The notes below the pieces were generated by a model, which saw only the letters and a list, made by a program, of their open reading frames with translations, made no database searches and was not told the origin of the DNA. From Minisyncoccota bacterium (GTDB lineage: Bacteria > Patescibacteriota > Minisyncoccia > Phycocordibacterales > UBA1006): a DNA stretch of 64,000 nucleotides. Location: positions 10,708-74,707 of the forward strand of contig JAJOIF010000001.1 of NCBI GenBank assembly GCA_021209525.1, in the 5' to 3' direction. A program made the translations under genes and the position numbers. This document shows, piece after piece, positions 7,946-24,720 of the stretch; within the stretch, counting starts at the first letter, position 1; each line of letters starts with the position of its first letter.

Positions 7946-8692
7946 ATGGAAGATATTCCAACACTTATGGATGCTGTAGGATTGCTCGGTCAATTGTCGT
8001 ATTGGGGTATTTTTGGACTGTCTCTTTTGGCGAATATCTTGATTCCTGTACCCGAAGAAGTATTCTTGCTCGCTCTTGGATATATTTCAGGAGGCGATGC
8101 ACCTGCAGTGAATCCATACCTGACGACCTTGATTGTGATTCCAGGACTTTTGATCAGCGACCTATTTCTCTATAGTCTTGCCCGTTCAGGGAACAAGTAT
8201 ATTGCGATTCTTGAAAAGAAACTGCAGAACTTTAAATTTACGCGCGATCGTGAATTTGTAGAAAAACATATCATCAAGATTATCGTCATCTCACGATTCA
8301 TTGTGCAATTTCGTTTTATGGGTCCTGTTCTTGCGGGGACGACCAATATTTCACGCGCCCGTTTTTTGGCGTGGGATGCATTCGCGCTCTTTATTTATGT
8401 GCCGATGATGATTGGTATTGGGAATTATTTCCATGCGCGTATATCTCAAGTAATTCAAGGTATTGCTTTGGTCAAGAATTACATTCTTATTGCTGTGAGT
8501 GTGATGATTTTTGTGTGGCTGGCACGAAAGATTCGCGCACTTTTCTTTGCGCGCTTTATTTTTGCATTGTCACAACCGCGCGGATATGTAGACACTATGA
8601 TTCCTGGACTCAAAAAACGAGTATATTCTGAATGGCAAGAAGTATGTCCTCCAGACCAAGATCAAGAGCTGTCTACAGACGAGATAAGGTAG
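7946..8692 (+). CDS. DedA/SNARE-associated family membrane protein
   Basis: Multi-TM protein with a DedA-like VPEEVFLLALGY motif. Confidence 0.55.
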   Translation: MEDIPTLMDAVGLLGQLSYWGIFGLSLLANILIPVPEEVFLLALGYISGGDAPAVNPYLTTLIVIPGLLISDLFLYSLARSGNKYIAILEKKLQNFKFTRDREFVEKHIIKIIVISRFIVQFRFMGPVLAGTTNISRARFLAWDAFALFIYVPMMIGIGNYFHARISQVIQGIALVKNYILIAVSVMIFVWLARKIRALFFARFIFALSQPRGYVDTMIPGLKKRVYSEWQEVCPPDQDQELSTDEIR

Positions 8693-8731
8693 ACCCTTGT
8701 TTTTATAAAAAATAGCTATTATATATACATC

Positions 8732-8806
8732 GATCCCGTAGTTTAATGGATAGAACATCAGCTTGCGGAGCTGACGATGCAAGTTCGATTCTTGCCGGGA
8801 TCACCA
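8732..8806 (+). tRNA. tRNA-Arg (anticodon GCG by hand folding), CCA encoded
   Basis: Cloverleaf GATCCCG/CGGGATC acceptor stem, TTCGATT T-loop and TTGCGGA anticodon loop. The anticodon assignment is less certain than the tRNA call itself. Confidence 0.7.
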
Positions 8807-8846
8807 AAGAGAGAGCTAGTTCGAGCACTCGAGAAGGGTCGAATAG

Positions 8847-8886
8847 CAACTAAAAAGCAGGTTAGTAATAACTTGCTTTTTAGTTG
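8847..8886. terminator. Strong hairpin immediately 3' of tRNA-Arg
   Basis: CAACTAAAAAGCAG / CTTGCTTTTTAGTTG forms a 13-bp stem. It lies at the left edge of the AT-rich island. Confidence 0.5.
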
Positions 8887-8906
8887 TAGTTTAATACAAC
8901 GATCTG

Positions 8907-8915
8907 TGCTATAAT
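8907..8915 (+). promoter_or_regulatory. Extended -10 element (TGCTATAAT) driving the HTH-hsdM operon, probably producing a leaderless transcript
   Basis: TGnTATAAT ends 6 nt before the GTG start codon at 8922. Confidence 0.4.
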
Positions 8916-8921
8916 ATATCT

Positions 8922-9128
8922 GTGAAAGACGAATCAAAAAAACTGGGTGAAAATCTCAGAAAAATCAGAACAAAAAAAGACATTACTCAAACAGGTCTTG
9001 CAGAGGCGTTGGGGGTTGATAAGTCTTTTATAAGTAATATAGAAAATGGAAAAACAAATCCAACTCTTTCAACCATTACTAGTATAGCCAAAGCTCTTGG
9101 TGTGTCATCTAATGAATTACTAAAATAA
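8922..9128 (+). CDS. XRE-family HTH transcriptional regulator (possible controller protein of the R-M operon)
   Basis: 68 aa containing TQTGLAEALGVDKSFISNIENGKTNPTLSTITSIAKALGV, a classic Cro/C1 HTH. Confidence 0.75.
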   Translation: MKDESKKLGENLRKIRTKKDITQTGLAEALGVDKSFISNIENGKTNPTLSTITSIAKALGVSSNELLK

Positions 9129-9132
9129 CTTT

Positions 9133-10716
9133 ATGAGTAAAGATAAAACAAATTTAAATACAACCAAAGAACAAGAGCGATCTGAGCTTCACCGTGCCAT
9201 TTGGCAAATTGCCAATGATCTTCGTGGCAGTGTTGACGGTTGGGATTTTAAACAATATGTTTTAGGAATACTTTTTTATAGATTTATCAGTGAAAACCTT
9301 ACAAATTACATCAACATAGACGAAAGACGATCTGGTAAAAAAGATTTTGATTACGCAACTCTATCAGATAAAGAGGCAGAATTTGGTCGTGCTGATACGG
9401 TAAAAGAAAAAGGTTTCTATATATTACCAAGTGAGCTTTTTGTAAATGTTCGTAAAAATGCCAGAAATGATGCAAACCTAAACGAAACATTATCATCTGT
9501 TTTTAATAATATTGAAAATTCTGCAAAAGGTTTTGACAGTGAAGATGATCTAAAGGGATTGTTTGATGACTTGGATGTGAACTCAAATAAGCTTGGTGGA
9601 TCGGTAGAAAAAAGAAATCAAAAACTTGTAAAGCTTCTTGAAGCAATTGGAGATCTTCGTCTTGGTGATTATGGAGACAATACTATCGATGCATTCGGTG
9701 ATGCGTATGAATTTCTAATGACCATGTATGCTTCAAATGCTGGTAAATCTGGAGGCGAATTTTTTACTCCTCAAGAAGTGAGTGAACTTTTGGCAGAAAT
9801 CACAACTGTTGGTAAAAAAGAAGTAAATAAAGTTTATGACCCATGTTGTGGTTCTGGTTCGCTTCTTCTTAAATTTGCAAAAGTACTTGGTAAAGAAAAC
9901 GTACGACAAGGTTTTTATGGTCAAGAAATAAACCTAACTACATACAATCTTTGTCGTATTAACATGTTCTTGCACGATATTAATTACAATAACTTTGATA
10001 TTGCTCACGGTGACACCCTTACAGACCCGAAGCATTGGGACGATGAACCATTTGACGCCATAGTTTCTAATCCTCCGTATTCAATCAAGTGGGATGGTGA
10101 CGCTAATCCTATTATGATTAATGATCCTCGTTTTTCTCCTGCTGGAGTTTTGGCTCCAAAAAGTAAAGCTGATTTGGCATTTACTATGCATATGCTTTCG
10201 TGGCTTTCTACCAGTGGAACGGCGGCGATTGTTGAATTCCCTGGAGTTCTTTATCGTGGCGGTGCTGAAGCAAAAATCCGTAAATATTTAATTGATAATA
10301 ACTATGTTGATGCAGTGATACAGCTCCCGCCCGATCTTTTCTTTGGTACTACAATTGCTACTTGTGTTGTTATCCTAAAGAAAAGCAAAAAAGATAATAA
10401 AACTTTGTTTATAGACGCTTCTGCTGAATTTGTGAGAGGTGGGAATAAAAACAAATTAAGTGGAGAAAATCGAAAGAAAATCCTTAATGCTTTTATTGAA
10501 AGAAAAGACATCGAACATTTTGCAAAAATCATAGACAACAAAGCTATCGCAGAAAATGATTACAATCTAGCAGTTTCTAGTTATGTGGAGCAGAAAGATA
10601 CGAGAGAGGTGGTGGATATAAAAGAGCTGAATAAAGAAATTGAGAGAATTGTAAAAAGACAAAGTGAGTTAAGGTCAGCAATTGATGAGATTGTTAATGA
10701 AATTGAAAATAAATAA
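9133..10716 (+). CDS. hsdM: Type I restriction-modification system DNA methyltransferase subunit HsdM
   Basis: 527 aa with the N-terminal HsdM_N region, the SAM motif DPCCGSGSLL and the N6-adenine motif IV VSNPPYS. Confidence 0.9.
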   Translation: MSKDKTNLNTTKEQERSELHRAIWQIANDLRGSVDGWDFKQYVLGILFYRFISENLTNYINIDERRSGKKDFDYATLSDKEAEFGRADTVKEKGFYILPSELFVNVRKNARNDANLNETLSSVFNNIENSAKGFDSEDDLKGLFDDLDVNSNKLGGSVEKRNQKLVKLLEAIGDLRLGDYGDNTIDAFGDAYEFLMTMYASNAGKSGGEFFTPQEVSELLAEITTVGKKEVNKVYDPCCGSGSLLLKFAKVLGKENVRQGFYGQEINLTTYNLCRINMFLHDINYNNFDIAHGDTLTDPKHWDDEPFDAIVSNPPYSIKWDGDANPIMINDPRFSPAGVLAPKSKADLAFTMHMLSWLSTSGTAAIVEFPGVLYRGGAEAKIRKYLIDNNYVDAVIQLPPDLFFGTTIATCVVILKKSKKDNKTLFIDASAEFVRGGNKNKLSGENRKKILNAFIERKDIEHFAKIIDNKAIAENDYNLAVSSYVEQKDTREVVDIKELNKEIERIVKRQSELRSAIDEIVNEIENK

Positions 10717-10717
10717 T

Positions 10718-11326
10718 ATGAAAAAAGGAATTATATATATAATGACAACTGCCGTTTCTGGTCTAATAAAAATCGGACAATCTGGAATAAATAATTTTCA
10801 AGAGAGAATGAGATTTCTTGAAGCCAATGGTTATTATAATGTTGTAGGATTAAAAAGATTTTTTGCAATTGAACTTGATGATTATGTAGATAAAGAAACT
10901 TTACTTCACGATATTTTTGAAAAACACAGAGTCGGTGAAAGTGAATTATTTGCTCTTGATCAAGAATTAGTCCGCCAACTACTCCTTTCGTTTGAAGGAA
11001 AAATCATTTACCCTGAAAATATTAACCAGGCGAAAGAATTTGATGAAGTTACAGAGATTAGAAAACAAGGAAAATTATTTAGTTTTTATAAAAAAGGATT
11101 AAAGAATGGAGATGAGATTCTCTTTATAAAAGACAAAAATATCAGTGCGAAAATTTGTGGAGAAAGAGAAGTAGAATATCAAGGTCAGATTTGGAAATTG
11201 TCACCGTTAGCATATAGGATCTTTGAACAACGTGGTGAGCTTAATACTAGTGGAGCTTATCAGGGTGCCAACTATTTTGAATACAATGGTAAAAAATTAA
11301 AAGATATTCCCGATAAAGTATTATGA
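10718..11326 (+). CDS. T5orf172-domain (GIY-YIG superfamily-like) protein embedded between hsdM and hsdS
   Basis: GIIYIMTT...GLIKIGQS...ERMRFLE...FAIELDD...LHDIFEKHRVGESELF follows the T5orf172 pattern. The start is 1 nt after the hsdM stop and the stop overlaps the hsdS start. Confidence 0.55.
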   Translation: MKKGIIYIMTTAVSGLIKIGQSGINNFQERMRFLEANGYYNVVGLKRFFAIELDDYVDKETLLHDIFEKHRVGESELFALDQELVRQLLLSFEGKIIYPENINQAKEFDEVTEIRKQGKLFSFYKKGLKNGDEILFIKDKNISAKICGEREVEYQGQIWKLSPLAYRIFEQRGELNTSGAYQGANYFEYNGKKLKDIPDKVL

Positions 11327-12528
11327 AAAAAAACCAATCCAAAATTGAAAAACTAATTTCAGAACTATGCCCTAATGGTGTGGAGTTTAAAATGCTTGGA
11401 GAACTAGAAGATGACAGTTTGATTAAACTTGGACGTGGAAATGTAATTTCAAAAAATGATATTTCTAATACTCCTGGTGATTTTCCTGTTTATTCCTCAT
11501 CAGCAAACGGAGAGGGAGAATTTGGAAGATATGGCAAGTTTATGTTTGATGACGAAAGAATAACATGGTCAATTGATGGTGGTGGTAGATTTTTCTATAG
11601 GTTCCCACACAAATATTCTGTAACAAATGTATCTGGGTGGTTAAAAGTAAATGATAATAATGTAATAAATACGCGTTATCTATATTTCGTTTTATCAAAT
11701 GCTTGGCTAACAAAAGTTTTTGATTATACAAAAAAAGCTCATCCTTCAGTAATTAGAGAGGAGTACAAAATCCCCATCCCACCCCTTGCAATACAAGAAG
11801 AAATTGTAAAAATTCTTAATAGTTTTACAGAGCTAGAAGCAGAGCTAGAAGCAGAGCTAGAAGCAAGAAAGAAGCAATATGAACATTATCGTGCACAACT
11901 CTTAACATTCCCAGAGGGGGGGGTACAATGGGTTAGGCTCAGTGATATTGGCACTATGATAAGAGGAAGTGGATTACAAAAAAAAGATTTTACAGAAACC
12001 GGAGTCGGATGCATTCATTATGGTCAAATTTATACATACTACGGGACTTTTGCAGATAAAACAAAATCATTTGTGTCTCCAGAATTGGCAAAGAAATTAA
12101 AGAAAGCTCAAAATGGTGACGTATTAATTGCTGGTGTCAGCGAAAATATTGAAGATGTATGCAAACCTTTGGGTTGGCTAGGTGGTGAAATTTGTATAAG
12201 TGGCGACATGTTTGCATTTCGTCATAATCAAAATACTAAATTTTTAACATACTTATTACAGACTCCGAATTTTCAAAAGTATAAAGAGAGATTTGCTCAC
12301 GGGACTAAAGTAATCCGAGTAAAAGTGGATAAAATTTTGGACTACAAAATTCCTGTGCCGTCACTTCAAGAGCAGGAACGCATCGTTTCAATCCTCGATA
12401 AATTTGATGCACTTGTGAATGATATTTCAATCGGTTTACCTGCCGAACTTAAGGCACGCAGGTCGCAATATGAGTATTATCGGGCAAAATTACTAACTTT
12501 TAAACCTGTAGAGCGTATGGCGATATAA
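11323..12528 (+). CDS. hsdS: Type I restriction-modification specificity subunit HsdS
   Basis: Two target recognition domains separated by a central conserved region (ELEAELEAELEARKKQYEHYRAQLLTF), plus the C-terminal conserved repeat (ELKARRSQYEYYRAKLLTF). Confidence 0.85.
   Translation: MKKNQSKIEKLISELCPNGVEFKMLGELEDDSLIKLGRGNVISKNDISNTPGDFPVYSSSANGEGEFGRYGKFMFDDERITWSIDGGGRFFYRFPHKYSVTNVSGWLKVNDNNVINTRYLYFVLSNAWLTKVFDYTKKAHPSVIREEYKIPIPPLAIQEEIVKILNSFTELEAELEAELEARKKQYEHYRAQLLTFPEGGVQWVRLSDIGTMIRGSGLQKKDFTETGVGCIHYGQIYTYYGTFADKTKSFVSPELAKKLKKAQNGDVLIAGVSENIEDVCKPLGWLGGEICISGDMFAFRHNQNTKFLTYLLQTPNFQKYKERFAHGTKVIRVKVDKILDYKIPVPSLQEQERIVSILDKFDALVNDISIGLPAELKARRSQYEYYRAKLLTFKPVERMAI
11830..11865 (+). 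repeat. Perfect 12-bp x3 tandem repeat (GAGCTAGAAGCA) inside hsdS encoding (ELEA)x3
   Basis: Read directly from the sequence. It is in frame within the hsdS central conserved spacer region. Confidence 0.9.
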
Positions 12529-12603
12529 ATACGCTCTACAGGGAAGTTAGTTTACATTGGTCTTGCTAATATAAACAAAATAGTATAAAATGTTTACATT
12601 GAT

Positions 12604-13782
12604 ATGAATAATATAAACCAATCAAAAATAGGACGATATATACAGCAAAAAGAAGGATATAAATCCTTTACGCCTTTTGAATTTCCACCAAAGGATGGTT
12701 TTGTTATTAGTACTAAACTTTACAAAAAACACGAGGAAGCTATTAGACTCGTTGGCAAATTAGATGGTATTACGCGCTTACTTCCAGATAAGGATTATTT
12801 TACTTTTATGTTCGTTGTAAAAGATGCAACATATTCAAGTCAAATTGAAGGGACAAAAGCAACCATGCAAGATGCAGTAGCCGCGCCGATAATTGAAGAA
12901 AAAAATCGCAAGGCTAGTGATGTGGATGATATTGAACATTATATCAAGGCAGCCAATTATGGGATTGAGAGAATCAAAGAATTTCCAATTTCACTTCGTT
13001 TTATTCGTGAATTGCATGAAAAACTCATGACTGACGCACGTTCTACTCATCATGCATATCCGGGACAATTTAGAACTTCTCAAAACTGGATCGGTGGTAA
13101 GACTCCTGCTGATGCTTCTTTTGTTCCACCAGCGCCAGATGATATGAAAAAATCTCTTGATGATCTGGAAAAATTCATTCACAAAAACGATGATTATCCC
13201 TCTTTGATTAAGGCGGGACTTTTGCATGCACAATTTGAAACTATTCACCCGTTTACTGATGGTAATGGACGCACTGGGCGTATACTTATCGCAATGTATA
13301 TACACTATGCAGGACTTTTGGAAGAGCCGGTGTTGTATCTTTCTAGTTATTTCAAAAAGTATCAAAAACTCTACTATCAAAAATTGCAAGGGTATCATGA
13401 TGATGAATCCGATATTGACGGTTGGCTCCTGTTTTTCCTTGAAGGAATAATTGAGATAGCAAACTCTAGTATTGAAACATGTACAAAGATCACAGAACTT
13501 CGCGATCGGGATTTTGCAAAGATGCAAAAGCTTGGTAAAAAGTCCGCCGAGTCAACACTTGAAATTGTTCGCAAGTTATATAGCCAGCCAATTGTAGGGG
13601 TAGCAGAAATAATGAAATGGACAGGATTTACTGCTCCTGGTGCATACAAGGTAATTGAAAGACTCAGAGATTTAAAAATTCTTGAGCCTCTTGGTGATGC
13701 AGATTATGATCAAAAATATGTCTATGCCGATTATTATGAATTATTTGATGAGGTGTTTAAAGAAGGTCGCAAAAAGAAATAA
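12604..13782 (+). CDS. Fic/DOC family protein (putative AMPylase-type effector) between hsdS and hsdR
   Basis: Canonical Fic motif HPFTDGNGRTGR within IHPFTDGNGRTGRILIAMYI, a Fic_N-like N-terminus and a C-terminal winged-helix-like tail. Confidence 0.85.
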   Translation: MNNINQSKIGRYIQQKEGYKSFTPFEFPPKDGFVISTKLYKKHEEAIRLVGKLDGITRLLPDKDYFTFMFVVKDATYSSQIEGTKATMQDAVAAPIIEEKNRKASDVDDIEHYIKAANYGIERIKEFPISLRFIRELHEKLMTDARSTHHAYPGQFRTSQNWIGGKTPADASFVPPAPDDMKKSLDDLEKFIHKNDDYPSLIKAGLLHAQFETIHPFTDGNGRTGRILIAMYIHYAGLLEEPVLYLSSYFKKYQKLYYQKLQGYHDDESDIDGWLLFFLEGIIEIANSSIETCTKITELRDRDFAKMQKLGKKSAESTLEIVRKLYSQPIVGVAEIMKWTGFTAPGAYKVIERLRDLKILEPLGDADYDQKYVYADYYELFDEVFKEGRKKK

Positions 13783-13784
13783 TT

Positions 13785-16700
13785 ATGACTAAAACCAACA
13801 AATACAATTTAGTTGCAGAAAATACACAAAGCACGGTTGTCGCCGAGTATGTTTCTGATGTCAAAAGAGTTTCGCAATATCAGAGCGAAGATGCTTTAGA
13901 AAAAGCTTTTATTCAGCAACTAGAATCTCAGGCATATGAATATTTAAATATTACTTCTGAAAATGATCTTATTCTTAATCTACGCAAACAACTAGAAAAA
14001 TTAAATAGTTATACTTTTTCTGATACAGAATGGGAAAGATTTTTTACAAGCGAGCTAGCAAATCCAAATCAAAGTATTGAAGAAAAAACCGCTACTATCC
14101 AAGAAGATAGCACCAAAATATTAAACAAAGATGACGGTACTTTTAAAAATATTGATTTAATAGACAAGAAAAATATTCATAACAATAGTCTGCAAGTTAT
14201 CAATCAATACACAACAGAAGACGGACAAAGATCTAATCGTTATGATGTGACGGTATTGGTAAATGGATTGCCACTTATTCATATTGAATTAAAACGCCGT
14301 GGAGTTGCTATTCAAGAAGCATTTAATCAGATAAATAGATATCAAAGAGAGAGTTTTTGGGCTTCAAGTGGTCTTTTTGAGTATGTGCAATTGTTTGTTA
14401 TCTCTAACGGCACACATACGAAATATTACAGTAATACAACCAGATCGCAGCACATTAAAGAAGCTCAAGAGGGTTCTAAAAATAAAGGCAAGAAAACAAG
14501 CAATAGCTTTGAATTTACGAGCTGGTGGGCAGATGCTACTAATCGCCCTATTACTGATCTAATGGATTTTGCAAAAACATTTTTTGCAAAACATGCGATT
14601 TTAAATATACTGACGAAGTATTGTGTATTTACGACTGATCGTCTATTGCTCGTGATGCGACCGTATCAAATTGTTGCAACTGAAAGAATTTTAAATCGCA
14701 TCGAAGTAAGTACAAATTATAAAAAGCTTGGCACTACTGAAGCAGGTGGCTATATTTGGCATACCACAGGATCTGGAAAGACTCTAACGAGTTTTAAAAC
14801 TGCACAATTGGCAAGTAAATTGTCATATGTCGATAAAGTGTTGTTTGTAGTTGATCGTAAGGATTTGGATTATCAGACAATGAAAGAGTATGACAAGTTT
14901 GAAAAAGGTGCGGCAAACAGTAATACCAGCACTTCAGTTTTAAAGAAACAGCTTGAAGACTCAAATTCTCGAATAATTATAACCACTATCCAGAAGCTTG
15001 ATAGATTTATTGCGAAAAACTCTGGGCATACTATTTTTGATGGTCATATCGTAATTATTTTTGATGAATGCCACCGATCACAATTTGGTGAAATGCATGC
15101 AGGAATTGTTAAGGCATTTAAAAATTATCATTTGTTTGGATTTACTGGAACTCCGATATTTTCTAAAAATGCTTCAGCTGGTGGTAGACCCGATTTTAAA
15201 ACCACAGAGCAGGCTTTTGGTGAGAAATTGCACACTTATACAATAGTTGATGCTATTTCTGACAAAAATGTTTTGCCGTTTAAGGTTGATTATGTTTCTA
15301 CGGTTCGTGAAGCGGAAAACATAGAAGATGCGAAAGTAAAAGATATTGATCGTGAGGCAGTTTTATCAGCACCCGAGCGTTTAGAAAATATTGTTCGCTA
15401 TATTCGTGAACACTTTGATCAAAAAACCAAACGAAATAGTTTTTATAAAATCCAAGACAGAAGGCTGGCAGGATTTAATTCTATATTTGCAGTTTCTTCC
15501 ATTGATGTAGCTAAAAAATACTATCTTGAATTTAAAAAACAGTTAGCGGATGAACCAAGTGATAAAAAGTTAAAGGTTGCCACAATATTTAGTTTTGGGG
15601 TAAATGATGAGGATGCAGATGGGATGATTGATGAGAATTCCGAAGATACCAGTGGTCTTGATGTAAGCTCTAGAGATTTTCTGGAAAGTGCAATTAAAGA
15701 CTACAACAAAATGTTTGGAACCTCTTATGATACGTCGTCTGATAAATTTCAAAATTACTATAAAGATGTAAGTGAGAAAGTGAAGAAAAGAGAAATTGAT
15801 ATTTTGATTGTGGTTAATATGTTTTTGACTGGGTTTGATGCAACTACACTTAACACGCTTTGGGTAGATAAAAATCTTCGTTTACATGGATTATTGCAAG
15901 CATATTCAAGAACGAATCGTATTTTAAATAGTGTTAAAACTTTTGGAAATATTGTTTGTTTTAGAAATTTAGAAAAAGCTACCAATGAAGCAATCGCACT
16001 CTTTGGAGACAAAGAAGCTGGTGGAATTGTATTACTTAAAGCATATGAGGATTATTACAATGGGTATAAAGATGGCGATAAAGAAATACGAGGATACAAG
16101 AGCCTTGTAGATGAATTGCTTGAAAAATTCCCCGTTGGAGAAAGAATTGTTGGAGAACAAAATCAAAAAGACTTTATAAAGTTATACGGAGCGATTTTGA
16201 GAGTGAAAAATATTTTGACTACTTTTGATGAATTTACTGGTAATGAAATATTATCTCCTCGTGATGTGCAGGATTATCACAGTATGTATATCGATCTATA
16301 CAATGAATTCCGCAAAACTGATGATTCTGAAAAAGAAAATATCAATGATGATATTGTCTTTGAAATGGAGCTTATTAAGCAAGTCGAGATTAATATTGAT
16401 TATGTACTAGGTCTTATTAAGAAATACCATGAGGATCATGTTTTGAACAAAGAGCTTCTCGTGGATATTAATAAAGCGATTGATTCGAGTGTGGAATTGC
16501 GTAATAAAAAAGATTTAATCAATCAGTTTATTACTTCTCTTGATGTTCATTCTATTGTTGATGAAGATTGGCAAAAATTTGTAGAAGAGAAAAAAGTCCA
16601 AGAATTAGAGCAAATTATTGAAACTGAAAATCTTGATCCTGAAGCTACATATAAATTTATACAAAATGCTTTCAGGGACGGAAATGTGCCAACAACAGGA

Positions 16701-16853
16701 ACGGCGATTAGTAAGGTTTTACCGCCAGTTTCTAGGTTTTCTCCTACTGGTGAAAGAAGTCAAAAAAGAGAAAGTGTATTGAATAAATTAACTAAATTTT
16801 TTGAAAGATTTTTTGATATTTCTGGAGGTAAATTTACATCTAATGAAAATTAA
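13785..16853 (+). CDS. hsdR: Type I restriction enzyme endonuclease/translocase subunit HsdR
   Basis: 1022 aa with an N-terminal nuclease region, SF2 helicase motifs (GSGKT Walker A and the DECH box IIFDECHRS) and a C-terminal HsdR domain. Confidence 0.9.
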   Translation: MTKTNKYNLVAENTQSTVVAEYVSDVKRVSQYQSEDALEKAFIQQLESQAYEYLNITSENDLILNLRKQLEKLNSYTFSDTEWERFFTSELANPNQSIEEKTATIQEDSTKILNKDDGTFKNIDLIDKKNIHNNSLQVINQYTTEDGQRSNRYDVTVLVNGLPLIHIELKRRGVAIQEAFNQINRYQRESFWASSGLFEYVQLFVISNGTHTKYYSNTTRSQHIKEAQEGSKNKGKKTSNSFEFTSWWADATNRPITDLMDFAKTFFAKHAILNILTKYCVFTTDRLLLVMRPYQIVATERILNRIEVSTNYKKLGTTEAGGYIWHTTGSGKTLTSFKTAQLASKLSYVDKVLFVVDRKDLDYQTMKEYDKFEKGAANSNTSTSVLKKQLEDSNSRIIITTIQKLDRFIAKNSGHTIFDGHIVIIFDECHRSQFGEMHAGIVKAFKNYHLFGFTGTPIFSKNASAGGRPDFKTTEQAFGEKLHTYTIVDAISDKNVLPFKVDYVSTVREAENIEDAKVKDIDREAVLSAPERLENIVRYIREHFDQKTKRNSFYKIQDRRLAGFNSIFAVSSIDVAKKYYLEFKKQLADEPSDKKLKVATIFSFGVNDEDADGMIDENSEDTSGLDVSSRDFLESAIKDYNKMFGTSYDTSSDKFQNYYKDVSEKVKKREIDILIVVNMFLTGFDATTLNTLWVDKNLRLHGLLQAYSRTNRILNSVKTFGNIVCFRNLEKATNEAIALFGDKEAGGIVLLKAYEDYYNGYKDGDKEIRGYKSLVDELLEKFPVGERIVGEQNQKDFIKLYGAILRVKNILTTFDEFTGNEILSPRDVQDYHSMYIDLYNEFRKTDDSEKENINDDIVFEMELIKQVEINIDYVLGLIKKYHEDHVLNKELLVDINKAIDSSVELRNKKDLINQFITSLDVHSIVDEDWQKFVEEKKVQELEQIIETENLDPEATYKFIQNAFRDGNVPTTGTAISKVLPPVSRFSPTGERSQKRESVLNKLTKFFERFFDISGGKFTSNEN

Positions 16854-16861
16854 AAAATTAT

Positions 16862-18328
16862 ATGAATACTGTTTGTATATTAAAAAATTTTCTAGAGTAC
16901 GAGCCATTACCTGAATTAATGCAAGGTGCAGGAATAGCAATTATTACACTGTTAATATCATTTGCTATTGGTATTTTGATACATCATTTAGGAGATAAAG
17001 AACGCAAGGGTGGTTTTCTAGATATTCATGTAGCGTTAGATTATGTTTGGCGTTTTAAACAATCCTTATTTCTAATAGTAATAGTCGTTGTATCACCATT
17101 TTTATTTGCATTTGAAAGCTTAAATATAAAAGCTTTGGTTTTCATAGTTTGGTCTATTTCTATTACTTTATTAATTTATATTAATATTCGATTATATTAC
17201 TGGGTTAAAGGAGATAAAGATGATTTTAGAAAAAAATATCTTTCAAATTTTCCAAAATCACCTAGAGATAAAATTGTTTCTTGGGGAGATTTTTGGAGTA
17301 CCGATATTAATAAGGGTAAAAGATTTACTGAGCCAGATTTTTTCTCAATTTTCTCTAAAGAAATTGATGCATTGTTAATCTCAAATAATAAAGAAGATTG
17401 GGAAACAGTGTTAAAGTTATTAGATGATTTTGTAGATAAAATTGAACTTAGAAATAAAACTTTTCTTGTAGTACTTGATGAATTCTTTCCGAAAATTCTT
17501 GAATGGCATTACTTTCTATGGGAGAAACAATTTACTCAGTATTCAATCGAATTAGGAAAAGAAAATCCTAAAATTGATACATATTTATTTCAAATAGATC
17601 AGCTTATAGATAAAATAATTAAATTTATTACCAATAGTGCGCTAACTACAGGTAATGCCTTTTCATATTTTGATAGACTAAAAAATCATATTGAAAAATA
17701 TGAAGACAAAAATATAGTAGGAGCTAAATTGACATATGAATATATACAACAAATTCCTATTTATGAAGATTGTTTAAATTTGACTTCAAAATCCCCAGAA
17801 GCTTATGATATCTGGAATCATTATTTCCCAGAATCATGGAAGATAACGATTAGTAATCTTGAGAAAAATAAAATATCATGGATTTGGTATGATAGATTTT
17901 TAAATTGGTCTCAATCTAGGATTTGGAATGAAAAAGAAGAATGGGATAAAGATTTAGATGAGGTCGCAAAATCACTTTTCCCAGAGGTTGATCCTATAAC
18001 GTGGGCAAAAATTTATACTTTCGTAATTAGACCGTTTTCAAACGACAGAATGAAATCAATTATAGAAAGTAAGGTAAATTTTGGTTATGTGGGACGCGTA
18101 TATTCTGGTTGGGGCGATGATATGGAAACTAGTTTTGCAAAAAAACAGCAAGAAGAACTTGAAAATACAATTAAGCTAGCTAAATATTTATTCGGTAAAG
18201 TTTTTACAAAGGAAAATATCGACAATTGGATAAAAGAACTTGAAAAATTAGAGTATCTTAAAGATTCAGATGAAAATAGAAAAAAGGAATACTGGAAAGC
18301 CTTACTGGGTAAACTAAAAAATAATTAA
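16862..18328 (+). CDS. Hypothetical membrane-anchored protein (3 N-terminal TM helices plus a ~380 aa cytoplasmic helical domain) immediately downstream of hsdR
   Basis: TM segments are predicted from hydrophobic stretches. No domain was recognised. It lies on the same strand, 9 nt after the hsdR stop. Confidence 0.5.
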   Translation: MNTVCILKNFLEYEPLPELMQGAGIAIITLLISFAIGILIHHLGDKERKGGFLDIHVALDYVWRFKQSLFLIVIVVVSPFLFAFESLNIKALVFIVWSISITLLIYINIRLYYWVKGDKDDFRKKYLSNFPKSPRDKIVSWGDFWSTDINKGKRFTEPDFFSIFSKEIDALLISNNKEDWETVLKLLDDFVDKIELRNKTFLVVLDEFFPKILEWHYFLWEKQFTQYSIELGKENPKIDTYLFQIDQLIDKIIKFITNSALTTGNAFSYFDRLKNHIEKYEDKNIVGAKLTYEYIQQIPIYEDCLNLTSKSPEAYDIWNHYFPESWKITISNLEKNKISWIWYDRFLNWSQSRIWNEKEEWDKDLDEVAKSLFPEVDPITWAKIYTFVIRPFSNDRMKSIIESKVNFGYVGRVYSGWGDDMETSFAKKQQEELENTIKLAKYLFGKVFTKENIDNWIKELEKLEYLKDSDENRKKEYWKALLGKLKNN

Positions 18329-18334
18329 TATAAT

Positions 18335-18622
18335 TTACCCCTTAATCTTAACTCTACTATTTATCAAGGATAGTTCACTACTAATACACTCTAGCACTGA
18401 TCTTTGCTCTAACGCTGAACCCTCTTTCAATACAAATTTAGCATAGTCTTTCAGGTCTATCGTTTCAATTTTTTCAGTTTTCTTTTTACCTAAAAACATC
18501 GCTTGTAATTTTTTAAATTTCTGAATTTCACTATTTAATTTAGAGGTAAGCTGTACTTTATTTAAACTTAAGGTATCAATCATTTTTAGAAGTGCTTCTA
18601 TAAGGTCTGGAAGGTACCCCAA
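18335..18622 (-). pseudogene. C-terminal fragment of a large serine recombinase (coiled-coil tail only)
   Basis: DLKDYAKFVLKEGSALEQRSVLECISSELSLINSRVKI aligns with the tail of the 31783-32262 recombinase fragment ([36 protein letters not shown]). The catalytic domain is missing. Confidence 0.5.
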
Positions 18623-18638
18623 AATTCAGACACCTTTT

Positions 18639-19693
18639 CTACGTACGTTCATCATATATCAGCACTTCTTTCTCTGCAAATTGTAGGGGCGCCATACCCA
18701 ACACAGAGTGTATCCTTCTTCGATTGTAATAGTTGATGGTCTTGTAGATTTCAGCTACAAGCTCACCAAGTGTTTCAAATCGATTAGGATCTCCAAGGTC
18801 TAGCTTGAACCCTTTGTAAAAGGATTCTTGATAGCCATTCTCCCAGGGACATCCAGGCCTACTCATGGATTGTTGTATACCTAGTTTCTGAACAAGAGCA
18901 GTGTAGTCTTTTGAGGTATACTCACTTCATTGGTCTGAGTGAATGATTCTCGGTGGTGCACGATGGAGTACAGCATTAAGTAATGCATTCATCACAAGCT
19001 GTGTAGCATGAGTGGTCAGAATAGCTACCCCTACAATCTCTCTGGTATATACATCAATGACCCTAGTAGGATAGATCCATTTCCCTTGAAACTTGAGGTA
19101 GGTGAAGTCAGATGCATAGATATCTCCCCTCCCACGAGGTGTCTCAAACAACAAGAGATTTGAGAAGATACTGTCTTTTGTCTTGTATACAAAGGGTTTC
19201 TTGGTGTATCTACGATATGGCTTGATACCAAAGATCTTCATGACTCTAAGTATTCGTTTCTTGTTGATTTTCAAGTGGAGTGCAAGACGCTTGTGGCCAT
19301 ATCCTGGATGTTCACGTAACACTTCTTCAATCATTTGCTTCGTCCTCCAGTCTTTAAGAGGTTGCTTGTGTTGATAGTACTGATGGGTTCGTTTGATACC
19401 TATGCGAGTACCATCTATACTTAGGCTCTTGAGGGCCCCTTTTTAGCCTCCATAGACATACGAATGGTAAGTTCTCCAATCAATCTCTTTAACTCTTCAT
19501 TCTCCTTCTTGAGCTTATTGTGAACTAATACACTCACTGAACCCTTGGCTTTGTTCCCAAGCCATGAGTAGATCGTAACAGTACTCACTCCAATATTCTG
19601 TGCTGCTTGGGCAACGCTGATACCTTGATGTTTGATACGGTTAATAGTTTCTTCTTTGATTTCTTTTGAGATTTTGAATTTCTTTTTGGACAT
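18639..19693 (-). mobile_element. Degenerate IS3-family insertion sequence. orfA (19421-19693) is intact, but orfB is N-terminally truncated and split by an in-frame TGA (18927-19334 plus 18639-18866)
   Basis: OrfA has an HTH plus a leucine zipper (IS3/IS911 type). The OrfB pieces carry DDE-integrase motifs (IIHSDQ, GCPWENGYQESF, YNxxRxH). The orfA/orfB overlap is lost. TGA is a genuine stop codon here because prfB is present. Confidence 0.7.
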
Positions 19694-19815
19694 ATATGTA
19701 TTCTATATTAATTAATAATTACATAGAATAGTTGTCTGAAGAAAGGGGTACCTTTCTCACCTAATAAAAACACCCCGCATGATGTATACGGGGTGTGGTT
19801 ATTAAGCAAATAACC

Positions 19816-20609: not shown

Positions 20610-20705
20610 ATATAAATTATCTCGTCAATTTTTGTAACATTGCGGAGCTGAGAAACATGTTGCAGGTATACAAAAACCGCCACCATGTGACGGTTTCTGT
20701 GTATG

Positions 20706-21108
20706 TGGAGATGGGCGGAGTCGAACCGCCGTCCATGAACATCCCTGAGCAACATCTACGAGTGTAGATGTATTTTTTATATCTATGCAAATAGATAATC
20801 TCAACACCGCCACCTTTAAAATACTCGAAACAGTAGCAGTGTCTATCTTGATGATTTAAAAGATATGTTCAAGAGGCGCATATCTTCGAGTGTAGGTATA
20901 TGACATCACGATCCTCTCTCTACACACAAGAGGCGCGACGACATCGCATTATATTATGCGAATGCTGGCGTAAATCCAAATGCTGAAGCATAAGGGCTTA
21001 CTACTTTCTTTGCGTTTGCACTTAAAGAAGTGTGGTCGATTTACGAGTATACCACAACTCGACCCGCATTACTCAGGGGGATTGTACATGTCGAAGCCAG
21101 ACATCCCC
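20706..21108 (-). ncRNA. ssrA: tmRNA (SsrA)
   Basis: The 5' end GGGGATGTCTGGCTTCGACATG matches the tmRNA consensus GGGG.UG.UUCUGG.UUCGAC. The 3' end GGTTCGACTCCGCCCATCTCC-A forms a tRNA-like T-arm and acceptor with the 5' end. The internal reading frame GCA AAC GCA AAG ... GCA TTC GCA TAA gives the tag ANAKKVVSPYASAFGFTPAFA. smpB is adjacent. Confidence 0.75.
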
Positions 21109-24499: not shown

Positions 24500-24572
24500 G
24501 TCCGCCCACTAGGACTCGAACCTAGGACCACAGAGGTATAAGCTCTGCGCTCTACCAACTGAGCTATAGGCG
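24500..24572 (-). tRNA. tRNA-Ile with anticodon UAU (hand folded), no encoded CCA
   Basis: On the minus strand: CCGCCTA/TGGGCGG acceptor stem, GCTC/GAGC D-stem, CAGAG-CTTATAC-CTCTG anticodon arm, TTCGAGT T-loop. Confidence 0.7.
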
Positions 24573-24720
24573 GACTTTGTCTACGTGATATTCATTTGTC
24601 AAAATAAGCTCTGCGACATGCCGCACATAGCCCCATTTAACGGGGTTTGATGAGTATGCCTCGTTTGGCGAGGGGAAAAAGTAACTCAGTACGAACTGCG
24701 TTACTTTCAGAATTGTACCC

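Follow-up and report, generated by a model that had tools for sequence, protein, structure and literature searches.

Does a run of eight guanines inside the specificity gene of a type I restriction-modification (R-M) system serve as a switch? The question is raised by a 64,000-nucleotide stretch of genomic DNA (hereafter, the window) from a Minisyncoccota bacterium, in which a G8 homopolymer (GGGGGGGG; forward strand, 11916..11923) lies within the gene hsdS. A preliminary description had proposed that this tract is a slipped-strand switch, which would either abolish restriction or yield a half-size HsdS. The analyses described here make the tract a strong, well-supported candidate for a switch. 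We consider the G8 tract a probable contingency (phase-variation) site, similar to that of the gonococcal NgoAV system, which would switch the specificity of a type IC enzyme.

The gene (11323..12528, forward strand) encodes a type IC specificity subunit of 401 amino acids that is full-length at G8. It has two Pfam Methylase_S matches (3.4e-35) and is assigned to Specificity_I by PADLOC. As had been described, the tract is read in frame as GAG GGG GGG GTA (E198-G199-G200-V201) within the protein segment ...FPEGGVQW; it is a mononucleotide, in-frame simple repeat, with a unit length not divisible by three. An AlphaFold model of HsdS (mean predicted local distance difference test score, pLDDT, 81) shows two target recognition domains (TRDs) split by a central helix, in the order TRD1, helix 155-193, TRD2, helix 348-390. 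The N-terminal conserved stretch and TRD1 occupy residues 1-154 in the model (11323..11784, forward strand; Pfam stretch 33-180). The central conserved region is a single long helix (residues 155-193; 11785..11901, forward strand), as defined by DSSP on the model and by alignment with EcoR124II. It is followed by an inter-domain loop, F194-V201 (11902..11925, forward strand), which has no secondary structure in the model and corresponds to a length-variable block of the alignment. TRD2 (202-347, its first strand at 202-205) and the C-terminal conserved helix (348-390) complete the modelled protein (11926..12492, forward strand).

The tract residues, 198-201, fall in this loop, between the TRDs and past the central conserved region. 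In a phmmer search of PDB, the best solved HsdS relative was the EcoR124II specificity protein (7bst), with E=3.4e-39 over query residues 116-397, a span that takes in the central region. It aligns unbroken across the junction, with FKEGEVEW in EcoR124II and FPEGGVQW in the window protein (more fully, ...YYRDQLLSFKEGEVEW in the window protein against ...HYRAQLLTFPEGGVQW in EcoR124II). Model and alignment together support the earlier placement of the tract directly after TRD1 and the central region. The tract also lies 3' of the central repeat, as claimed. This is a 12-bp tandem repeat, GAGCTAGAAGCA x3 (11828..11876, forward strand; ~4.2 copies, period 12, 92% matches by Tandem Repeats Finder), that codes for ELEA-ELEA-ELEA.

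What would a change in tract length do to this protein? Translation of the shifted frames showed that the frame is kept at G5, G8 and G11, and that the other lengths truncate HsdS. At G7 and G10, translation would end at a TGA (11957..11959, forward strand), giving products of 211 and 212 amino acids with the end ...GSVILAL. At G6 and G9 it would end at a TAG (11934..11936, forward strand), giving products of 203 and 204 amino acids with the end ...PEGG(G)TMG. The prediction that a shift of one base in either direction truncates HsdS after TRD1 therefore holds, with 211 residues at G7 and 204 at G9, both ending just past the central region. Every predicted truncated product retains TRD1 and the entire central helix (155-193), and TRD2 and the C-terminal helix are absent from the G7 and G9 products. 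The N-terminal half of HsdS matches a PADLOC model of natural, ~207-amino-acid specificity subunits end to end (2-195 of 207).

The tract is unusual for its surroundings. No other G or C run in the window reaches 7, the runner-up being one G6. Base composition predicts 0.13 (Markov model) to 0.21 (independent, identically distributed bases) runs of G8 or longer per 64 kb. This expectation understates the oddity, because the hsd cluster lies in a low-GC island (window ~9000-19700; 33% GC, against 42% in the flanks) and because GGG is rare among Gly codons, accounting for 9% of them in the hsd genes and 13% in the non-hsd genes of the window. In the window genes, GGG-GGG codes for 2 of 80 Gly-Gly pairs, and codon usage gives a probability of ~0.004 for G8 at E-G-G-V. 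When the HsdS protein was held fixed and codons were drawn from the hsd island's own usage, a G/C run of at least 8 arose in 1.4% of 20,000 resamplings (P ~0.014). The G8 tract is real, and its origin by chance is unlikely. Two A8 tracts in the same gene (11326-11333 and 11978-11985) were also considered as designed switches and were rejected, since two A/T runs of at least 8 are expected in 36% of the protein-fixed resamplings.

Further evidence comes from related genes. We compared 160 related hsdS loci from many phyla, 80 of them from GTDB species representatives and 80 from metagenomes; some of the latter may be redundant (two, L125 and L137, look identical in the linker). Retrieval was ranked by tblastn match and favoured intact genes, so no meaning can be attached to the ratio of ON to OFF states in this set. 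Within these genes (186 kb), 19 of the 23 G/C runs of at least 7 sit in the linker that aligns to query residues ~197-200, a clustering with a binomial P of ~6e-24 even when a generous target of 15 codons is allowed. The density of such runs is 2.6 per kb in the linker versus 0.0078 per kb in the flanks (773 kb), or a ~340-fold difference. The carriers are scattered over Histophilus somni, Campylobacter jejuni, Clostridia, Bacteroidales, Paludibacter, Coriobacteriia, Corynebacterium, Aeromicrobium, Solirubrobacterales and Ca. Limimorpha. In all, G/C linker tracts of at least 7 were found in ~12% of the retrieved type IC subfamily.

The linker hosts G runs (coding for Gly-Gly) and C runs (coding for Pro-Pro) alike. 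Moreover, GGG-GGG is used for 17 of 21 Gly-Gly pairs in the linker (81%) versus 3 of 193 at other positions of these genes (Fisher P ~1e-18). That Gly-Gly is merely a preferred linker was rejected on the same two grounds, i.e., the Pro-Pro C runs at this site and the restriction of the GGG-GGG bias to the linker; selection therefore acts on the DNA homopolymer and not on the amino acids. Comparison of the related genes thus shows a G/C homopolymer that is recurrent at the linker and selected at the DNA level.

Among near relatives, the tracts come and go. Metagenome relatives carry G7, G8 and G11 at the homologous position. The closest relative over TRD2 (L106, 87% identity) shows G8 in the corresponding E-G-G-V codons, and the next closest (L001, 85% over the TRD2 half) has neither the tract nor the two glycines; gains and losses of tracts have thus evidently occurred between close relatives. 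P0001, the best homologue over the full length (79% identity), has no tract (FNE-RVRW), so that mere inheritance with this allele family does not explain the tract. Two species-representative loci have a frameshift exactly at the tract (G9 in L037, C9 in L083). Interrupted tracts occur as well, as NGWGL in P0038 and as G6-T-GG in L111.

A comparison of tract length among relatives had been suggested in the preliminary description; it showed that linker tracts recur across phyla and that their length varies in Campylobacter upsaliensis. The type IC HsdS proteins of this species (P0015, P0016, P0032 and related sequences; loci L002-L005) are 55-58% identical to the window protein over 96-98% of its length, and carry a poly-G tract in the same loop past the central region. 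In DNA from C. upsaliensis isolates, this tract is G8 (L004, L005) or G11 (L002, L003), and both lengths encode full-length proteins. The predicted G9 product of one allele is an exact match to an existing isolate protein of 215 amino acids, EFM2942304.1, which belongs to a cluster of 24 truncated proteins (209-218 amino acids). The tails found among the truncated C. upsaliensis proteins of 214 to 218 amino acids, NGGGS, NGGVLSL and NGGGVLSL, are those expected for G9, G7 and G10, and the tract of this species probably also occurs at these lengths. The C. upsaliensis system differs from that of the window in its longer linker (FEELQRRTDMLNGGG-L), in its gene order (hsdM-hsdR-hsdS) and in a genome rich in poly-G contingency loci. 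In one isolate (L004, 1594-1605), hsdM is split at a G12 into open reading frames (ORFs) of 83 and 357 amino acids, and in the C. upsaliensis system poly-G switches seem to be present in hsdM as well as in hsdS.

These observations suggest how the window gene may work. In the G8 state, the full-length, two-TRD HsdS would guide both the M2S1 methyltransferase and the R2M2S1 endonuclease to a bipartite target that is asymmetric. If slipped-strand mispairing changed the tract to G7 or G9, translation would halt 3 to 13 codons past it, and the resulting product of 204 to 211 amino acids would retain TRD1 along with the central conserved helix in full. A pair of these half-subunits would associate via this helix to form an enzyme with a new, symmetric TRD1-TRD1 target. 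Because this pairing is expected, the switch most likely changes specificity and does not only turn the system off. Slippage is presumably frequent enough to be useful in this Paceibacterota bacterium, and its half-HsdS is presumably active.

Several points weigh against a functioning switch in this organism. Tract length was read from three consensus assemblies, i.e., the window and two Logan contigs, the only ones covering the tract that look-ups with the neighbouring genes yielded, and at this consensus level no differences were found among them, all being G8. One contig (L006, from run SRR12390700) matches the window without a difference for 10.8 kb, G8 included, and the other (L007, from run SRR12390694) has G8 unchanged. 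An exact look-up of the predicted G6, G7, G9 and G10 products in a collection of 15 billion proteins found none of them. No linker tract of this kind was found in the four other loci from the candidate phyla radiation (CPR, or Patescibacteria) among those retrieved. The G8 is the sole such tract in 64 kb, which gives no sign of a general use of poly-G contingency in this genome, and the island is low in GC and looks horizontally acquired, so the tract may simply have come with the gene. Finally, G8 falls below the cut-off of at least 9 that a survey of REBASE (Atack et al., FASEB J 2020; PMC7383803) applied to mononucleotide tracts in calling genes phase-variable, and would go uncounted there. 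However, the founding member of the class, NgoAV, has G7, and the 9-base cut-off is therefore a survey threshold and not a biological definition.

The same assemblies revealed a second kind of change. An A8 tract in TRD2 (11978..11985, forward strand; coding Q-K-K), 55 bp downstream of the G8, is A9 in L007 (L007 1255-1263) and splits hsdS into ORFs of 245 and 151 amino acids. In the 245-amino-acid product, TRD1 and the central region are followed by a small part of TRD2 and then by a tail read out of frame. L007 also has a 2-bp deletion in a T run at ~11273-11276, in the upstream PDC-S57-like gene. The A9 and the deletion may be genuine variants in the population, which would mean that the island is decaying or being inactivated, or else errors of assembly at low coverage. 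The A9 points to a population with truncated hsdS, though one that arose from an ordinary A tract expected by codon usage. Scans of genome and metagenome contigs found no further hsdS copy from the same species, the best match having 65% identity over the full-length protein; partial matches in these scans (L103, L106) had 84-87% identity over TRD2.

An alternative that accommodates several of these facts is that selection acted on the tract in an earlier host, and that it came in with the island as an inert passenger and persists as a relic, in frame by accident, that neither slips meaningfully nor is selected here. The low-GC island beside a tRNA-Arg gene, with its remnants of insertion sequences, would fit such a history, as would the lack of any other G/C tract of at least 7 in the 64 kb and the constancy of G8 in two samples. 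The only hsdS frameshift seen, at an ordinary A8 and accompanied by a 2-bp deletion in the neighbouring gene, also looks more like decay than like a programmed switch. We nevertheless regard this explanation as unlikely. An unselected G8 should decay by point mutation, and interrupted tracts do occur in P0038 and L111, whereas the tract in the window is intact, in frame and uses the rarest Gly codon twice. In addition, measurable slippage is known for G runs of 7-8 in those bacteria that have been studied, as cited in PMC7383803.

A second alternative accepts slippage and assigns it a simpler outcome: the half-product would be inactive or unstable, and both modification and restriction would be lost until the tract slips back. 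This plain ON/OFF switch had been listed as an alternative in the preliminary description. The predicted truncations are real and carry the out-of-frame tails GTMG and YNGLGSVILAL, and 47% of the ngoAV loci in gonococcal genomes are predicted to encode no active enzyme, according to PMC9577141. However, a pure ON/OFF tract would work anywhere in a gene, and such tracts are typically near the 5' end, as reported for hsdM (PMC7383803), whereas 19 of the 23 tracts in our comparison occupy the sole spot that leaves TRD1 and an intact central helix. Since the tracts cluster where truncation leaves a dimerisable half-subunit, a change of specificity is favoured over plain ON/OFF. The half-HsdS of NgoAV and the engineered 'half S' of S. 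aureus CC398-1 are active, as described in PMC9577141 and PMC6158711. We therefore consider loss of function alone to be a rather improbable role of the tract.

A coincidence of codon choice in a Gly-Gly linker, or a length error of assembly or polishing, is very improbable and largely refuted: although composition alone predicts ~0.13-0.2 G8+ runs per 64 kb and homopolymer lengths can be mis-called in assemblies (PMC7383803), such a run has a P of ~0.014 given the protein, the same G8 is present in two independent Logan assemblies from different runs, and the enrichment at the linker across relatives is extreme.

The specificity switch favoured here would belong to a complete hsd locus. The hsdM gene (9133..10716, forward strand; 527 amino acids) has N6_Mtase (3.8e-116) and HsdM_N domains, and hsdR (13785..16853, forward strand; 1022 amino acids) has EcoR124_C (6.1e-69), T1R_D3-like, SWI2_SNF2 and HSDR_N domains. 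We assigned the system to type IC because its best solved HsdS relative is EcoR124II (7bst) and because the EcoR124_C domain in HsdR marks this type. The features of type IC that were tested are all present, namely a two-TRD HsdS with a central helix, the relationship to EcoR124II, and HsdM and an EcoR124_C-containing HsdR in one locus.

Other genes are embedded in the operon. A small MUG113/T5orf172-like gene (10682-11326) lies between hsdM and hsdS and matches the PADLOC candidate defence family PDC-S57 (2.4e-54). A Fic gene (12604-13782; PADLOC SoFic, 2e-105) lies between hsdS and hsdR. The prrC gene occupies a comparable position in the type IC EcoprrI locus. Beginning 9 bp past hsdR, where the GC content of the island is lowest (27-31%), an ORF of 488 amino acids (16862-18328) matches nothing in Pfam or PADLOC; it may represent an accessory or defence gene that is yet to be characterised. 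The L001 locus (8479-9999 and 12607-15665), which encodes the closest full-length homologue, is another case of cargo genes inserted in type IC operons: it has a reverse transcriptase of 506 amino acids (RVT_1) between hsdM and hsdS and two further ORFs, one of them with DUF4325, between hsdS and hsdR, with hsdR called as ORFs of 740 and 277 amino acids.

The boundaries of the island are marked by a tRNA-Arg(GCG) gene (8732-8806) and by fragmented transposase ORFs (rve, rve_2/rve_3, HTH_Tnp_1; 18335-19693), and the transfer-messenger RNA (tmRNA) gene (20705-21108) lies beside it. Exact-match look-ups assign HsdM, Fic, HsdR, RecG and LigA to a metagenome-assembled genome that bears the name Candidatus Paceibacterota (Pacebacteria), a CPR lineage. 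In these look-ups, RecG was found under three NCBI accessions, LigA under four and HsdR under one, and the island may therefore be strain-variable. Outside the island, the window contains a tRNA-Ile gene with the anticodon TAT (24500-24573). This tRNA is an uncommon bacterial means of decoding AUA.

Two further features of hsdS bear on the range of specificities that the system could have. The first is the 12-bp repeat. In EcoR124I/II, the count of 4-residue central repeats sets the length of the target spacer, and the 12-bp repeat would therefore offer a second, in-frame route to vary specificity. Its copy number varies among homologues: P0001 lacks one unit and P0008 has an additional one. 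The second feature is an overlap of signals just past the tract. In the G7 state, the TGA at 11957-11959 overlaps an in-frame ATG at 11956-11958 (M212) as ATGA, which would open an ORF of 190 amino acids comprising TRD2 and the C-terminal helix. The TGA of the upstream gene (11324-11326) likewise overlaps the ATG of hsdS (11323-11325) as ATGA. The ATGA at M212 was considered as evidence for a coupled TRD2 half, but we keep this coupling only as speculation, because the overlap is not conserved in L106, the nearest tract-bearing relative, and because the hsdS2 of NgoAV is reported inactive in PMC9577141.

If the tract slips in vivo, one cell line would yield subpopulations with different methylation and restriction specificities. 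This could be a hedge against phage that carry the current methylation pattern, and might re-programme gene expression in the manner of a phasevarion. It would also extend phase variation of type I systems by simple sequence repeats (SSRs) to CPR, whereas it has so far been shown by experiment in N. gonorrhoeae and predicted from REBASE. A broader reading would join three elements: that this is the first CPR contingency locus described, that the G7 state produces coupled halves, and that sub-threshold linker switches are commoner than reported in most bacterial phyla. Were it true, a tiny-genome and probably host-attached organism would vary the specificity of an acquired type IC R-M system, with embedded defence genes, by poly-G slippage. 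The ATGA coupling in the G7 state would then supply separate halves and up to three enzymes (TRD1-TRD1, TRD2-TRD2 and TRD1-TRD2). Taken as a whole, we find this joint reading doubtful.

A poly-G, slippage-prone switch in hsdS is a known mechanism, of which the window tract is a new candidate example. What is new here is the CPR host, together with a survey in which sub-threshold G/C7-8 linker tracts are common (~12% of the subfamily) and selected at the DNA level. The literature searched contained no paper joining CPR, restriction-modification and phase-variable, and the term 'Candidatus' has 0 occurrences in the searched text of Atack et al., which gives no CPR/Patescibacteria example. The ~340-fold enrichment and the 81% use of GGG-GGG at the linker suggest that surveys with a 9-base threshold, and annotation pipelines, miss many switchable hsdS genes. 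They also suggest that 'hsdS pseudogenes' split at the linker between the central region and TRD2 are often phase variants.

How, then, does the window gene compare with known systems? In the survey of Atack et al. (PMC7383803), 7.8% of hsdS genes had SSRs, in every case located between the TRDs, and a switch from full-length to truncated HsdS and back was proposed; pathogens and environmental bacteria alike had such genes. The window hsdS likewise has a non-triplet SSR between its TRDs and a predicted toggle between full-length and truncated forms. EcoR124I/II belong to the same family as the window system and share the 4-residue repeat in the central region. The truncations of EcoR124II and of the S. 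aureus half S were laboratory-made, in contrast to the proposed natural ones, and the EcoR124II junction, FKEGEVEW, has no homopolymer.

The closest counterpart is NgoAV of N. gonorrhoeae FA1090, with which we compared the window gene by published description. According to PMC9577141, a polyG tract positioned at hsdS1's 3' end yields a half-HsdS of 208 amino acids with the target GCAN8TGC; when one G is lost, hsdS1 is joined to hsdS2, and the target becomes GCAN7STCA. Gonococcal strains show G6 to G9 at this tract (PMC9577141). The two systems differ in their reference state, which is truncated (G7) in NgoAV and full-length (G8) in the window hsdS. They also differ in their hosts, a host-adapted pathogen in the one case and, in the other, an uncultured Paceibacterota (CPR) metagenome-assembled genome. 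In both, however, a poly-G tract ends the half that contains TRD1 and the central region (208 of 410 amino acids in NgoAV, 204-211 of 401 in the window hsdS), and a change of one base fuses or splits two HsdS halves. The earlier suggestion that a half-HsdS of the window system would dimerise and recognise a palindromic target agrees, by analogy, with this published precedent.

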